Shown: piece after piece, positions 1 to 4,011 of the stretch
Layout of the letters: each line of letters starts with the position of its first letter
Numbering within the stretch: the first letter of the stretch is position 1
Origin: a virus
Taxonomy: Duplodnaviria > Heunggongvirae > Uroviricota > Caudoviricetes
Reading direction: 5' to 3' (one strand)
Length of the DNA: 4,011 nt
IMG/VR virus record: IMGVR_UViG_2713896779_000027
Notes under the pieces: model-generated
Database searches by the model: none
The model's input: the letters and a program-made list of their open reading frames with translations, nothing else
Told to the model about the DNA's origin: nothing
Position numbers and translations under genes: made by a program

Positions 1-185
1 GGCTGTTCCTGCTGAACGTTGTTATCAGCCACACGCCAGGTGTATACGCTTTTATCAACGAAGCCAGCCTTTTTCAGTTCCCACAGCTCGTTCAGTACTT
101 CTTCACGACTGATATCAAGTCGCGCAGCCAGCTCTACCGACGTGGCTTTTCCCATCGCTTTCAGTGCGTCAAAAACAGTCTCCAT
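1..185 (-). CDS. hypothetical small protein, 5' portion only (stop lies beyond the left edge); possibly winged-helix, weakly Ren-like
   Basis: ATG at 185..183 with GGGAGG (197..192) 6 nt upstream. Hand translation of the minus strand is open for 61 codons to position 1: [61 protein letters not shown]. Lies directly 3' of the P-like gene. Absent from the ORF track because the stop is outside the window. Confidence 0.55.
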
Positions 186-218
186 AAATTTCCTCCCGGT
201 AAAAAATCACTTCTCAAC

Positions 219-884
219 TCAAACAAAACCAGCCGCTTTCCGGCGTTCATATTCCTGTTTCAGCAACTCAATTGGCGTTGGCCCCGACGGGCGTTTGGGG
301 GCCGCCAGTTGTCGCCGGACTGGCGGAACGCTCAGGCCGTTACTAACATGCTTTGCCCATTTCGTCAGTTGCCGTTCTGCAAGCCGTTTTAATTCCCCTT
401 CGGTCATCTGGCGCTCAATCCCCTTTGAACGCATCTCGAGGCAAATGTGATACAGCACAGGCTGAGACCACGGGTACTTATCACTTCCGTCGTATCGCCA
501 GGACTCATTGCGCCAGCGGCGGTACTCCTCCATCACAGCATCCACCGTCAGACCGAATGGATTGGCTCCGCTTTTCGAAATCAGTGCCACAAACTCAGCC
601 AGGTCCGGAGGCCATGTTTCACCCGCCCGGCAGCGGTCCATGCACTGGCGGCAGACCTGCCGGATTTGCTGCTCAGTCATCGCGCCAATCTGTGCAATCC
701 AGAGCTTCGAAGGTGCGGCCCCGTTCTTCTGGGTCCAGCGGTTCGAATAAACCACCCCCATGAGTTCCCACAGCTTCCAGGCCGTTTCCGTCGCTGATAA
801 ATCCGTTTTCACGTTCCCACTGCTCACGTGCTGCCCGAATTTCCTGAACTGCCCGTGATGCGGTGCCACCTGGTGCTGCTGCAT
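219..884 (-). CDS. lambda P-like replication protein (helicase loader)
   Basis: 221-aa ORF. The C-terminal ~150 aa (from MTEQQIRQV...PDLAEFVALISK... through ...KYPWSQPVLYHICLEMR...ELKRLAERQL... to the end) aligns by eye with lambda P as I remember it (...GQFVAWCREEA...SYPWKSNAHYWLVTNLY...ELRRKAADEL...). AAGGGG sits 5 nt upstream of the ATG at 884. The start is uncertain: from 884 the gene overlaps the upstream O-like ORF by 212 nt; alternative in-frame ATGs are at 761 and 680, the latter giving an ATGACTGA start/stop junction with the O-like stop. Confidence 0.8.
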   Translation of the reverse strand: MQQHQVAPHHGQFRKFGQHVSSGNVKTDLSATETAWKLWELMGVVYSNRWTQKNGAAPSKLWIAQIGAMTEQQIRQVCRQCMDRCRAGETWPPDLAEFVALISKSGANPFGLTVDAVMEEYRRWRNESWRYDGSDKYPWSQPVLYHICLEMRSKGIERQMTEGELKRLAERQLTKWAKHVSNGLSVPPVRRQLAAPKRPSGPTPIELLKQEYERRKAAGFV

Positions 885-1713
885 GGTTTACCCCTTTGCT
901 GACTGGTTTAACCTGCGCCCTGACGTGATTTACGTGACGGGCGAATTTCTGCTCCCACTGAATCTGCGTAAACACTTTCCCCTCCGCTGCCCAGTAGTCC
1001 CGGAAGGCGGCAAGTTCAGCAGGTGTAAATTCTGTCTCCGGCAAAGCCATCCCCCACAACGCAGCCCGTCGTCGAAAATCCCGTGACGGATACCAGCTAT
1101 CGCTCATCGGGAATTTTCCGATGGGTTCGCTCAGGCCATACAGGAATACAGGGGGGGCTGCCTGTAACGACAAAACTTCCTGCTCACTGGTCGGAGCACT
1201 CTCGCGTGCGTTATGTGTGGGGTTTAGATCTTTGGGTTCCTTTGGGTTCCGTGATCCGTTTTTGGGTGTCTTTGATGGAAAATTTGGGTGTCTTTGGTTA
1301 TTTTCCATGCAGCTAAGAGTTCTGTTTTTGGGTCTGTTTTGTGCTGAAACATAACCATTTTCGGTACTGTTTTTATTAACAGCACCAATTTTACCCACCT
1401 TTAAAGACTCCCGTTTTTGGGTGTATTCAGGCTCGGCAACACTTTCTTCTACACCGATAAGTCGGTACACCACAATTTGCTTTGTTCTGCCTTTTCTCTC
1501 ACCGGTATCAACAATTAACCCAATCTCCATCAGGTGTCGTAAGCTGTCCTGCACAGTCTTTTTGTTCAGTTCCGTTACTTCTGCCAGTGCAGATACAGAC
1601 GGGTATGCACACAAATCGGCACCGCACATATCAGCAAGCCAGGTCAATACTGACTTACTGGATGAACTGCCGGTTTTCACCTTTTTAGCCCATCGTAGTG
1701 CATCGATACTCAT
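673..1713 (-). CDS. phage replication initiation protein, O-like in function (N-terminal HTH domain, iteron-bearing linker, C-terminal domain)
   Basis: Long minus-strand ORF (track: 673..1788). N-terminal region (...SVLTWLADMCGADLCAYPSVSALAEVTELNKKTVQDSLRHLMEIGLIVD...) matches the winged-HTH pattern of phage replication initiators. A Pro/Lys-rich linker (TPKNGSRNPKEPKDLNP) is encoded by the repeat array. Lies between the cII-position gene and the P-like gene. Start placed at the internal ATG 1713..1711 (MSIDALRW...), which has AGGGG 7 nt upstream and overlaps the upstream gene by only 29 nt; the 1788 start would overlap it by 104 nt. Confidence 0.8.
   Translation of the reverse strand: MSIDALRWAKKVKTGSSSSKSVLTWLADMCGADLCAYPSVSALAEVTELNKKTVQDSLRHLMEIGLIVDTGERKGRTKQIVVYRLIGVEESVAEPEYTQKRESLKVGKIGAVNKNSTENGYVSAQNRPKNRTLSCMENNQRHPNFPSKTPKNGSRNPKEPKDLNPTHNARESAPTSEQEVLSLQAAPPVFLYGLSEPIGKFPMSDSWYPSRDFRRRAALWGMALPETEFTPAELAAFRDYWAAEGKVFTQIQWEQKFARHVNHVRAQVKPVSKGVNHAAAPGGTASRAVQEIRAAREQWERENGFISDGNGLEAVGTHGGGLFEPLDPEERGRTFEALDCTDWRDD
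1231..1428. repeat. iteron-like direct repeats inside the O-like gene (candidate prophage replication origin)
   Basis: Six copies of a TTTGGGT core, starting at 1231, 1241, 1261, 1283, 1327 and 1416. Includes a perfect 10-bp tandem TTTGGGTTCC x2 (1231-1250) and a perfect 14-bp direct repeat TTTGGGTGTCTTTG (1261-1274 and 1283-1296). Spacings of 10, 20, 22, 44 and 89 bp are close to multiples of the helical repeat. An AT-richer stretch lies between 1340 and 1410. Lambda ori is likewise an iteron array within the O coding sequence. Confidence 0.6.
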
Positions 1714-2236
1714 ACGAACCCCTGGCAGACATTTGTTTATCTGCAAAGTAATATTGGTATTGCTGACGATACGCGTGCTTGAAAGCAATAGCTTTTTCTA
1801 TAAGCTCGTCAGTCTCACGTTCCACAACAACTGGATCCGCAAAAAGCAGCCCGGACTCCACCACATCGCCATATTCTTTGTTTAACCCGGCGATCATGTA
1901 CGTAATGCTTTTTCCGTCAGTAATTTCACAATACAATCTGAAATCGCTGATCCGGATAGCCTCCATAATTGCCGGAATCTGCGCCGTGAATTTGTCACGC
2001 TTATCTCTGGTGTCGATAGCTTTCCAGCGTTCGAATATCTTCACCCGGTTAACGCCCAGCGCCCGTTGATCAACCTCGCCATCATTAAACGTGACGCGTT
2101 GAACATCGATGTTCGGGCGTTCTTTCAGAGCCCAGAATGCTTCCGTGATTAATATCGTCGCCTGCTCCTGTGTCATTCCTGGTCGGCATACCCAGGTATC
2201 CAGAGCCTCACAAACCTGTTCAGTGGTGATTTTCAT
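1685..2236 (-). CDS. hypothetical early-operon protein in the cII position (possibly YdaT-like CII analogue)
   Basis: 183-aa ORF immediately downstream of the Cro-like gene (17-nt overlap) and upstream of the O-like gene. Translation looks protein-like with no low-complexity runs. The only start support is a weak GGGG about 10 nt upstream of the ATG at 2236. Function is assigned from position only; the family call is a tentative recollection. Confidence 0.6.
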   Translation of the reverse strand: MKITTEQVCEALDTWVCRPGMTQEQATILITEAFWALKERPNIDVQRVTFNDGEVDQRALGVNRVKIFERWKAIDTRDKRDKFTAQIPAIMEAIRISDFRLYCEITDGKSITYMIAGLNKEYGDVVESGLLFADPVVVERETDELIEKAIAFKHAYRQQYQYYFADKQMSARGSYEYRCTTMG

Positions 2237-2447
2237 TGTTCAACCGCCCCGCCCGCTTTGCCTTACGATATTCGTCATAAACTTTGGGGTCGTACTGAAG
2301 TTCCCCGCCGGATGCCTCTTGCAGGCGCATCGCGCGACCTTCAGGAACCAGTTCCCCCCATGCAGCAACGCTTGCCAGCCTAACTCCTGCGACATTGGCA
2401 AGCTTTGTTTTGCTGCCAAAAAACGCTATAGCATCAATTTTCAACAT
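2220..2447 (-). CDS. Cro-like transcriptional regulator (P22-Cro/DicC type)
   Basis: 75-aa ORF divergent from the repressor gene. The motif ...IDAIAFFGSKTKLANVAGVRLASVAAWGELVPEGRAMRLQEASGGELQY... matches the P22 Cro pattern (...VIDHFG...AVAKALGIS..AVSQW.EVIPEKDAYRLEIVTAGALKY...). AAGGGG sits 7 nt upstream of the ATG at 2447. A TTGACT/TAGTTT promoter with interleaved operators lies upstream. Confidence 0.85.
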   Translation of the reverse strand: MLKIDAIAFFGSKTKLANVAGVRLASVAAWGELVPEGRAMRLQEASGGELQYDPKVYDEYRKAKRAGRLNNENHH

Positions 2448-2457
2448 ATCGAACCCC

Positions 2458-2522
2458 TTAGATTTTCCTAAGAAAACTAGATCGTAGAGAAACCTAAGTC
2501 AAGAAAAATTAGAATTACCTAA
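2458..2522. promoter_or_regulatory. OR-like operator region: three TTAG-N6-CTAA palindromic sites between divergent repressor and cro genes
   Basis: Site 1 at 2458-2471 is TTAGattttcCTAA, site 2 at 2484-2497 is GTAGagaaacCTAA (reverse complement TTAGgtttctCTAC), site 3 at 2509-2522 is TTAGaattacCTAA. Centre-to-centre spacing is 26 and 25 bp. The sites interleave with both promoters' -35/-10 elements, as OR1-3 do in lambda. Confidence 0.6.
2474..2502 (-). promoter_or_regulatory. PR-like sigma70 promoter for the cro-like operon
   Basis: On the minus strand, -35 TTGACT (2502..2497), a 17-nt spacer and -10 TAGTTT (2479..2474). Operator site 2 fills the spacer and site 1 lies just downstream of the -10. 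A candidate divergent PRM-like -10 TAGAAT (2510-2515, plus strand) sits inside site 3 and would give a leaderless or near-leaderless repressor mRNA (ATG at 2524). Confidence 0.5.
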
Positions 2523-2523
2523 T

Positions 2524-2931
2524 ATGAAAAACGAAACCTTCGGTGCTCGCCTCTTATACAGGCGAAAAAAATTAAAACTGTCTCAGGCCGCATTAGGTAA
2601 GCTGGTCAAAGTGGCTCACGTAACAATTTCTCAATGGGAAAGAGATGAAACACAGCCAGCGGGGAAGAGATTATTCGCACTGAGCCAGGCGCTTCAGTGC
2701 TCGCCGACTTGGCTTCTTTTTGGAGATGAAGATAAGCAACCAGGCGAACCGATCCCAGATAATCAGCCAGTCAATCTGACAGAAGATCAAAAAGAGTTGC
2801 TTCAACTGTTCGACGCACTGCCTGAGTCAGAGCAAAAGGCTCTGTTGTCAGAGATGCGTGCTCGAGTTGAGAATTTCAACAAACTTTTTGAAGAACTACT
2901 CAAAGCTCGCAAAAGAAGCGCAAATAAATAA
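2524..2931 (+). CDS. dicA: DicA-like HTH (XRE-family) prophage repressor, CI functional analogue without an S24 peptidase domain
   Basis: 135-aa ORF. N-terminal HTH (...LSQAALGKLVKVAHVTISQWERDETQP...) and a C-terminal segment (...LFALSQALQCSPTWLLFGDEDKQP...LPESEQ...EMRARVENFNKLFEELLKARKR...) closely resemble E. coli Qin DicA as I recall it (...LFALSKVLQCSPTWILFGDEDKQP...LPESEQ...EMRARVKNFNKLFEELLKARQR...). Divergent from the Cro-like gene and flanked by operator clusters. The symbol denotes a homologue, not necessarily the K-12 Qin locus. Confidence 0.9.
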   Translation: MKNETFGARLLYRRKKLKLSQAALGKLVKVAHVTISQWERDETQPAGKRLFALSQALQCSPTWLLFGDEDKQPGEPIPDNQPVNLTEDQKELLQLFDALPESEQKALLSEMRARVENFNKLFEELLKARKRSANK

Positions 2932-3006
2932 CCCCCCTTTTTTTCGCAACTCTCTGTAATAAAAAGCACAAACTTTCAAATACTTGTGTTTTTTACATCA
3001 AGAAGC

Positions 3007-3059
3007 TTAGGTTTTTCTACACAAAAAGCTTGACCATAACTCTTAGGTTATTCTAAATT
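3007..3059 (+). promoter_or_regulatory. OL-like operator pair with candidate PL-like promoter downstream of the repressor gene
   Basis: Site at 3007-3020 is TTAGgtttttCTAC; with its 5' C (3006-3020, CTTAGGTTTTTCTAC) it matches the reverse complement of OR site 2 at 14 of 15 positions. Site at 3043-3056 is TTAGgttattCTAA. Between them is TTGACC (3030-3035), with TAAATT (3054-3059) as a weak -10 at 18-nt spacing overlapping the second site. Orientation is inverted relative to the OR sites, as OL is to OR in lambda. Confidence 0.5.
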
Positions 3060-3138
3060 CTACTCATCAAGACACCGCACGGTGTTCTCAGCAAACAGTT
3101 CCGCTACCCGGCGTTAAGGGGAAGCAGAGGATTTCTCA

Positions 3139-3290
3139 GTGGGCGAAGTCAAACATCAGAATGGAAGGCGTCCAGGGATCAGCAAAGAAACAGCGATGGC
3201 GCTTTATATTGATATCAGCGCCATTGCCGGACAGGTAAGAGTTATCAGAGCGGTAACTAAGCGGTATGCGCCTTTACTTCAGAAAGTCTC
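3139..3290 (+). CDS. hypothetical protein, N-terminal fragment interrupted by assembly gap
   Basis: GTG at 3139 with GAGGA (3127-3131) 7 nt upstream. Frame is open for 50 codons up to the N-run (VGEVKHQNGRRPGISKETAMALYIDISAIAGQVRVIRAVTKRYAPLLQKV). Contains AGG/AGA codons, typical of phage accessory genes. First ORF downstream of the candidate PL-like promoter. No recognisable family, so it may not be a real gene. Confidence 0.35.
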
Positions 3291-3340
3291 NNNNNNNNNN
3301 NNNNNNNNNNNNNNNNNNNNNNNNNNNNNNNNNNNNNNNN
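3291..3340. other. run of 50 N: assembly gap or masked sequence
   Basis: Fifty consecutive n characters, directly visible. True length and content are unknown, and the two flanks may not be contiguous. Confidence 0.99.
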
Positions 3341-3432
3341 ACCAATTTCCTCTCGAGTAACAGACCCCTCAGAGGATACCACCTCGCCTGACGTGGTTAA
3401 AAAGCAGGCAACGCTAACCACAAGGAGCCGAC

Positions 3433-3651
3433 ATGCAGAAACGAGACCCCGTCATCATCGCGCCAGACTATACCGATGATGAACTTTATGAGTGGATGCA
3501 CCAGAAAATTAAGGCGGTGCAGGACCTGAAATGGGCCAATGAAGCCAGGGCTAAGCAGGCTGAAAATCTGTCCGCTCTGGAGCAGGATATCACCAATCTG
3601 GAAAAAGCAGCGGCATTAAGCATTGCCAGAATGATTACATACCTGAGGTAG
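3433..3651 (+). CDS. hypothetical 72-aa protein, probably 3'-truncated by the IS insertion
   Basis: ATG at 3433 with AAGGAG (3422-3427) 5 nt upstream. Translation MQKRDPVIIAPDYTDDELYEWMHQKIKAVQDLKWANEARAKQAENLSALEQDITNLEKAAALSIARMITYLR is helical/coiled-coil-like. The stop (3649-3651) falls within the first bases of the inferred IS left end. No family recognised. Confidence 0.6.
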   Translation: MQKRDPVIIAPDYTDDELYEWMHQKIKAVQDLKWANEARAKQAENLSALEQDITNLEKAAALSIARMITYLR

Positions 3652-4011
3652 CCTGAGTTTAACGGACACTCCTTCCTGAAATAGAATGGCATCAGAAGGA
3701 GCTAATAATGAGCAGAAAAACCCAACGTTACTCTAAAGAGTTCAAAGCCGAAGCTGTCAGAACGGTTCTTGAAAATCAACTTTCGATCAGTGAAGGCGCT
3801 TCCCGATTATCTCTTCCTGAAGGCACTTTAGGACAATGGGTTACCGCCGCCAGAAAAGGGCTCGGTACTCCTGGTTCCCGCACGGTGGCTGAACTGGAAT
3901 CTGAAATTCTGCAACTGCGTAAGGCGTTAAATGAAGCTCGCCTTGAGCGAGATATATTAAAAAAAGCAACAGCGTATTTTGCACAGGAGTCGCTGAAAAA
4001 TACGCGTTAAT
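3644..4011 (+). mobile_element. IS3-family insertion sequence, left end and orfA (element continues beyond the right edge)
   Basis: orfA-type transposase gene with the characteristic HTH N-terminus and leucine-zipper C-terminus, followed by an A7 run (3959-3965) typical of the IS3-family -1 frameshift site. The -1 frame stays open to the window end. Left terminus inferred at TGAGGTAGCC... (3644), with GGACAC at 3664-3669, by analogy with IS3-family inverted repeats that begin with TG. The boundary could instead be at the TGAG at 3654. Confidence 0.7.
3708..4010 (+). CDS. IS3-family transposase OrfA (IS600/IS911-like architecture)
   Basis: 100-aa ORF MSRKTQRYSKEFKAEAVRTVLENQLSISEGASRLSLPEGTLGQWV...LESEILQLRKALNEARLERDILKKATAYFAQESLKNTR. 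Same layout and C-terminal ...ILKKATA...SLN..R motif as IS911 OrfA from memory. AAGGAG (3695-3700) 7 nt upstream of the ATG. Slippery A-run just before the stop. Confidence 0.9.
   Translation: MSRKTQRYSKEFKAEAVRTVLENQLSISEGASRLSLPEGTLGQWVTAARKGLGTPGSRTVAELESEILQLRKALNEARLERDILKKATAYFAQESLKNTR

Follow-up and report, generated by a model that had tools for sequence, protein, structure and literature searches.

Directly 3' of a small repressor gene, the stretch 3006-3059 raises the question of whether it is a second operator cluster with a promoter of its own, an OL/PL equivalent as proposed in the initial annotation, and which genes such a promoter would serve. The whole stretch of DNA analysed (4,011 nt, hereafter the window) belongs, judging by sequence identity, to a Qin-like lambdoid prophage of STEC O121:H19. 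Positions 1-3290 and 3341-3643 were 100% identical to E. coli O121 RM8352 (L001), and positions 2200-3290 shared 99.7% identity with the "PPompW" prophages of STEC and 99.6% with prophages of O157:H7. The immunity region comprises the following features:

2220-2447, minus strand: dicC (Cro analogue), 75 aa (NCBIfam NF007282 DicC, 167.6 bits, cutoff 130; Pfam P22_Cro)
2458-2522, no strand assigned: first operator cluster (OR analogue), three sites (2458-2471, 2484-2497, 2509-2522) at spacings of 26 and 25 bp
2524-2931, plus strand: dicA-type repressor gene, 135 aa (NCBIfam NF007257 DicA, 241.6 bits, cutoff 101)
2960-2995, plus strand: hairpin after dicA, AAAAAGCACAA, 12 nt, TTGTGTTTTTT, with A/T runs on both sides (fold z-score -3.2)

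The first operator cluster sits between the divergent dicC-like and dicA-like genes. The repressor was 63% identical to K-12 DicA and the Cro analogue 83% identical to K-12 DicC, and the N-terminal domain of DicA matched the DNA-binding domain of P22 C2 (E = 1e-21). The P22 operators, TTAAG-N4-CTTAA, span 14 bp, as does TTAG-N6-CTAA. The third OR site stops one base short of the dicA ATG, and this start lacks a Shine-Dalgarno-like sequence (2509-2526), resembling the leaderless cI and paaR2 genes. A homopolymer tract, CCCCCCTTTTTTT, lies right behind the dicA stop codon (2932-2944). The hairpin at 2960-2995, equalled in folding by one of 200 shuffles, probably serves as the terminator of dicA and would keep its transcription apart from the downstream promoter; unrelated hairpins occupy the same position in other lineages.

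To the left of dicC, a YdaT-like gene, a DnaT-domain replication initiator and a lambda-P-like gene were found. The initiator gene contained TTTGGGTKYC four times exactly and once in a near match (1231-1292 and 1416-1425, other strand), together with longer GTTTTTGGGT repeats; by analogy with the lambda O gene, the TTTGGGTKYC repeats look like origin iterons.

Downstream of the repressor gene, the candidate control region and its predicted transcript contain:

3007-3020, plus strand: distal operator (OL2 analogue), TTAGGTTTTTCTAC, 9 bp upstream of the -35; one mismatch to TTAG-N6-CTAA; PWM 19.0 bits
3030-3035, plus strand: predicted -35, TTGACC, of a rightward PL-like promoter (dicBp homologue), from the promoter scan
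3043-3056, plus strand: proximal operator (OL1 analogue), TTAGGTTATTCTAA, a perfect TTAG-N6-CTAA in the spacer, overlapping the -10; PWM 21.6 bits
3054-3059, plus strand: predicted -10, TAAATT, separated from the -35 by 18 nt and sharing its first three bases with the proximal operator
3065-3125, plus strand: conserved untranslated leader of the predicted transcript, with a putative start near A3066

CTTAGGTTTTTCTAC (3006-3020), TTAGGTTATTCTAA (3043-3056) and TTGACC (3030-3035) were all present where the initial annotation had placed them, and the pair of sites flanks the -35 as described. The first of these had been matched to the reverse complement of a site in the upstream cluster at 14 of 15 positions; the match stood (93%), but its partner lies at 2484-2498 and not at 2483-2497, one base off. 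The inversion of the second cluster with respect to the first was also borne out: the imperfect site of either cluster reads TTAG..CTAC in the direction of its promoter.

The sites were far more frequent than base composition alone would give. Three exact copies of TTAG-N6-CTAA were found in the 4-kb window (2458, 2509 and 3043) against 0.04 expected, a count reached in none of 200 shuffles, and allowing one mismatch added the sites at 2484 and 3007, five in all. The complementary 15-mer shared by the two intergenic regions at 14 of 15 positions was not equalled in 1000 shuffles (maximum 13, mean 10.9). In a symmetrised PWM trained on the very five sites it scores, these reached 19-22.5 bits, and no other position in the window rose above 2.1 bits. 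Three operators are given in the literature for dicBp, and the same scan of the window for a third downstream site returned nothing above that value; the sites thus number exactly five, with no hidden third one 3' of the repressor gene. An independent consensus promoter scan found TTGACC-18 nt-TAAATT at 3030-3059 (9 of 12 matches). Such a combination of sites and promoter layout is not expected by chance.

The position directly 3' of a DicA-family repressor gene, the reuse of the OR motif and the placing of one site upstream of the -35 and the other over the -10 all upheld the OL/PL-equivalent reading, and the region proved to be the positional homologue of dicBp in K-12 Qin. After dicA, K-12 Qin carries TTAGctatagCATA, 9 bp, TTGACC, 6 bp and TTAGtcatggCTAA; the CTAA of its proximal site runs into TAATCT, which is followed by a leader containing CATCAAcACACCGCACGGTGTTCTCAGCAAACAGTTCCGC. 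In the alignment, the window showed the same elements in the same order, with gaps of 9 bp and 7 bp, and the same leader (95% identical over 60 nt). Since layout and leader are those of the K-12 stretch behind dicA, 3006-3059 is best read as the dicBp orthologue in a different immunity allele, that is, as the early-left operator-promoter of a Qin-like lambdoid prophage at which DicA-type dimers repress through two sites (probability roughly 0.9).

What is known of function comes from K-12. The operator Oc, to which DicA was shown to bind in vivo, is TTGTTAGTCATAACTAACAA, with a TTAG-N6-CTAA core, and a single A-to-C change in it abolishes DicA binding, while Oa, the K-12 counterpart of OR3 in the window, was not bound by DicA in vivo (Yun et al. 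2012, PMC3441716). Deletion of dicA raised the expression of a dicBp-lacZ fusion 22-fold, lambda PR- and PL-like operators were described in both the dicA-dicC and the dicA-dicBp intergenic regions, and Qin is induced through the antirepressor Rem (Ragunathan & Vanderpool 2023, PMC10448788). ChIP-seq of DicC placed inferred sites "on either side of dicA" and gave the motif TT(A/C/T)G...C(G/A/T)AA (PMC11430063). Earlier work on dicBp (Bejar, Cam & Bouche 1986, NAR 14:6821; Bejar, Bouche & Bouche 1988, Mol Gen Genet 212:11) is given here as cited in PMC10448788. By this analogy, repressor binding, promoter activity and the transcription start would carry over to the present allele, all functional evidence being that obtained for K-12 Qin, with a DicA of only 63% identity.

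Conservation was followed among the DicA relatives of eleven genomes, each representing a species, and of 80 viral contigs. The arrangement of distal site, -35 and proximal site over the -10 was common to Escherichia, Citrobacter, Buttiauxella, Pantoea, Enterobacter, Erwinia and Yersinia, and the two downstream sites were 35-36 bp apart (start-to-start) in all the lineages examined. Among the positions invariant in an alignment of 14 lineages were TTA in the distal site, TTAG and TAA in the proximal one and, in the -10, T1, A2, A3 and T6 (columns T67, A68, A69 and T72). The -35 counterparts were TTGACC in K-12 dicBp and TTGATC, TTGCCT or TTGACT in other genera.

A scan for the leader core found it in at least 120 viral contigs. 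Fifty-six viral-contig instances kept the promoter frame and the leader but carried the palindromes TTGAGTTTTCTCA and ATGAGAAAACTAA at the same two positions; the adjacent DicA/DicC-family repressor and Cro had a different helix-turn-helix, and their own OR1, which the palindromes match, was ATTGAGTTTTCTCAAT. The two operator clusters thus vary in step with the recognition helix, as expected of real operators. Judged from these alignments, the co-variation is the classical pattern of lambdoid immunity modules, in which operator identity is exchanged as a unit with the recognition helix of the repressor while promoter frame and leader stay. This second immunity type, with TTGAG-N4-CTCAA-type operators in the same promoter frames, is seen in the viral contig L098 (about 3500-4160) and in 55 instances like it. 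A matrix of OL-versus-OR identity across immunity types set clearly apart the L098 type alone; it does not discriminate further because the TTAG/CTAA half-sites are common to most types.

The same observations bear on whether the downstream repeats could be dead remnants, either a duplicated piece of OR or the scar of a mosaic junction, with hexamers that resemble a promoter by coincidence. The prophage is damaged by IS600 in this genome, the related RM8352 copy has a frameshifted integrase and another frameshifted gene, and matches to consensus promoters are weak evidence on their own. Such a decay is nevertheless scarcely credible: position, spacing and key bases of the sites, the -35 and the -10 were kept across seven genera, the elements are present in the apparently complete phages mEp460, HannyBb and PPompW, a different repressor type goes with different operators, and the homologous K-12 promoter is active and repressed by experiment. 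A separate matter is which protein acts at the sites in a functional promoter. They might be mainly DicC targets that damp early-left transcription after induction, with DicA acting through the distal site or indirectly. The proximal site matched the reverse complement of OR3 at 13 of 14 positions, and DicA did not bind the K-12 counterpart of OR3 (Oa) in vivo; OR3 and the proximal site were more conserved across lineages than OR1, in parallel with the higher identity of DicC (83%, against 63% for DicA), and the DicC ChIP signal flanks dicA. Against a leading role of DicC, which is very unlikely on balance, deletion of dicC left dicBp unchanged in the experiments in which deletion of dicA gave the 22-fold rise (PMC10448788), and the K-12 proximal site resembles Oc, a site that DicA binds. 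Since lambdoid switches share sites between both proteins, the difference between DicC and DicA would be one of relative affinity and not of mechanism.

The initial annotation had also suggested looping between OL and OR across the repressor gene. In a lambda-like form of this reading, repressor oligomers would bridge some 585 bp, and the loop would be needed for full repression, for dicA autoregulation or for both. Clusters of at least two sites do lie on either side of the gene, and the site spacings (26 bp for OR1-OR2 and 36 bp for OL1-OL2, a difference of roughly one helical turn) were kept in all lineages and fit pairwise cooperativity on the same relative faces. PaaR2, a small CI analogue from an O157:H7 prophage with a confirmed PL/OL, forms octamers in solution (PMC8630535). 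DicA, however, consists of the HTH domain and a short helical tail, with neither a lambda-CI-type C-terminal domain nor a Peptidase_S24 domain in Pfam, though it may oligomerise in another way. The OR1-OL1 distance ranged from 538 to 613 bp, with the helical phase scattered over 0.0-0.9 of a turn; loops of this length tolerate some phase change, and the phases showed no clustering. Even among prophages with identical DicA the distance was 582-589 bp, a shift of up to 7 bp due to variation in a C/T tract (C5-8, T6-9). Finally, a K-12 dicBp fusion located outside Qin still rose 22-fold when dicA was deleted (PMC10448788), evidence against a strict dependence on OR in cis. With a repressor devoid of a CI-type C-terminal domain, a drifting distance and repression outside the locus in K-12, looping found no support here and is regarded as rather unlikely; local repression by DicA-type dimers at the two downstream sites is preferred.

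The leader consists of CATCAA, a hairpin ACACC-GCAC-GGTGT (3072-3085), CTCAGCAAACAGTTCCGC and CCC-GGCGTTAA-GGG, and from 3065 to 3125 E. coli prophages of three operator types showed almost no variation in it. In distant relatives, the first hairpin was formed by other stems (AATCAC/GTGATT, AACAC/GTGTT, CGGC/GCCG) with loops of 3-6 nt, and this retention of the hairpin with altered stems favours an RNA hairpin over a protein site of fixed spacing. Folded as a single sequence, the leader of the window was no better than its shuffles (z = -0.23), and RNAalifold on the MAFFT leader alignment gave only a 4-bp helix because MAFFT mis-registers hairpin 1. A search of the window against Rfam (E <= 1) returned no family, which is uninformative on put elements since Rfam has no put model, and BLAST gave no match between the leader and HK022 putL, sequence similarity alone being compared. 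The leader could be, for example, a factor-independent antiterminator or a processing/stability signal, by which PL transcripts would get past the DicF terminator to xis/int. That it is a novel RNA element acting in cis in lambdoid prophages without N is distinctly unlikely, and the same grade applies, separately, to the idea that DicA-type repressors bridge OR and OL without a CI-like C-terminal domain. In Citrobacter and Buttiauxella (L009, L008 and L010), a match to the boxA consensus (CGCTCTTTAACAA) lies about 60-100 nt past the leader with a hairpin before it, which suggests a nut-like site there; nothing comparable was seen in the window.

The genes downstream of the leader are the following:

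3139-3290, plus strand: first operon gene, hypothetical / ECs_2282-family putative zinc-binding protein (annotated ATG 3196, alternative GTG 3139), running into the run of Ns
3433-3651, plus strand: ydfC, second operon gene, its last codons replaced by the IS600 end at about 3644
3644-4011: IS600 (IS3 family), inserted in the last codons of ydfC, with orfA at 3708-4010

The run of 50 Ns (3291-3340) stands for 185 bp of RM8352 (L001 7092-7276) within the first operon gene, and reflects masking or a gap in the assembly and not a deletion. The downstream genes, which had been listed as unknown, were identified as a dicBF-type early-left operon (ECs_2282-family gene, ydfC, DicF-like RNA, dicB, ydfD, exonuclease, xis and int). 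In RM8352, dicB is annotated in this operon and the DicF-like RNA scored 43.5 bits (E = 1.4e-7), below the Rfam gathering score of 48; the integrase and another gene are frameshifted in that copy. The junction between ydfC and IS600 was found in six O121:H19-type genomes and was absent from O121 RM8352. Because IS600 intervenes in the source genome, control of dicF/dicB from the PL-like promoter may be impaired there, and the element may be polar on both.

Taken together, these features would fit the following mechanism. A sigma-70 promoter (TTGACC/18 nt/TAAATT) would fire rightward from a start near A3066. In the lysogen, dimers of the DicA-type repressor would occupy the two pseudo-palindromic 14-bp sites through their P22-C2-like helix-turn-helix domain, one at 3043-3056 over the spacer and the -10 and the other at 3007-3020, 9 bp upstream of the -35, and RNA polymerase would be excluded. 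Once the repressor is removed, which in Qin is the work of the antirepressor Rem and not of RecA cleavage, transcription from about A3066 would pass through the conserved leader into the operon, in the predicted order ECs_2282-family gene, ydfC, a further ORF, DicF-like RNA, dicB, ydfD-like gene, exonuclease, xis and int. DicC, the Cro analogue, would probably act at the same sites.

The analysis places a widespread STEC prophage (PPompW-like; O121, O157, O145), by its immunity region, in the DicA/DicC switch class and pins down its five operators and its early-left promoter, though it carries little weight beyond annotation. It may be of use in reading the expression of DicF/DicB, which affects cell division, phage resistance and EHEC virulence regulation, and in predicting shared immunity among Qin-like prophages.

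Among known systems, the OL/PL regions of lambda and of P22 (c2 repressor) likewise form a second cluster beyond the repressor gene, inverted with respect to OR, with operators over an early-left promoter for recombination, kil-type and xis/int genes; P22 C2 further shares the homologous DNA-binding domain and the 14-bp operator span. Two sites were detectable here against three in lambda/P22, and they lie 36 bp apart around the -35 where those of lambda/P22 are adjacent at about 24 bp. The 135-aa repressor, unlike those of lambda and P22, has no RecA-cleavable S24-type C-terminal domain, and neither an N gene nor a nut site was recognised in the window. PL933P/OL of CP-933P (PaaR2-YdaS-YdaT, E. 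coli O157:H7) resembles the present region in having a small CI analogue, a divergent Cro-like gene and a YdaT-like gene, and includes a second promoter with OR-like operators that was repressed by both regulators in a reporter assay (PMC8630535). CP-933P differs in its repressor family, in its operator consensus (GTTTAGTAA repeats), in the octamers formed by PaaR2 (PMC8630535) and in the toxin-antitoxin pair between PL and the repressor gene.

The K-12 Qin dicBp shares with the window the place immediately 3' of dicA, the succession of distal site, 9 bp, TTGACC, 6-7 bp and proximal site over the -10, the same NCBIfam repressor and Cro families, and an operon with ydfC, DicF, dicB and ydfD. 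The two differ in the flanks and the central six bases of the operators (CTTAG..CTAAG here, GTTAG..CTAAC in K-12), in the distal site, which is well preserved here and degenerate in K-12 (TTAG..CATA), in the first operon gene (ECs_2282-family here, ydfA/ydfB in K-12) and in the IS600 that interrupts the operon here. A PL/OL of this kind is already known, the promoter having been described in Qin since 1988.
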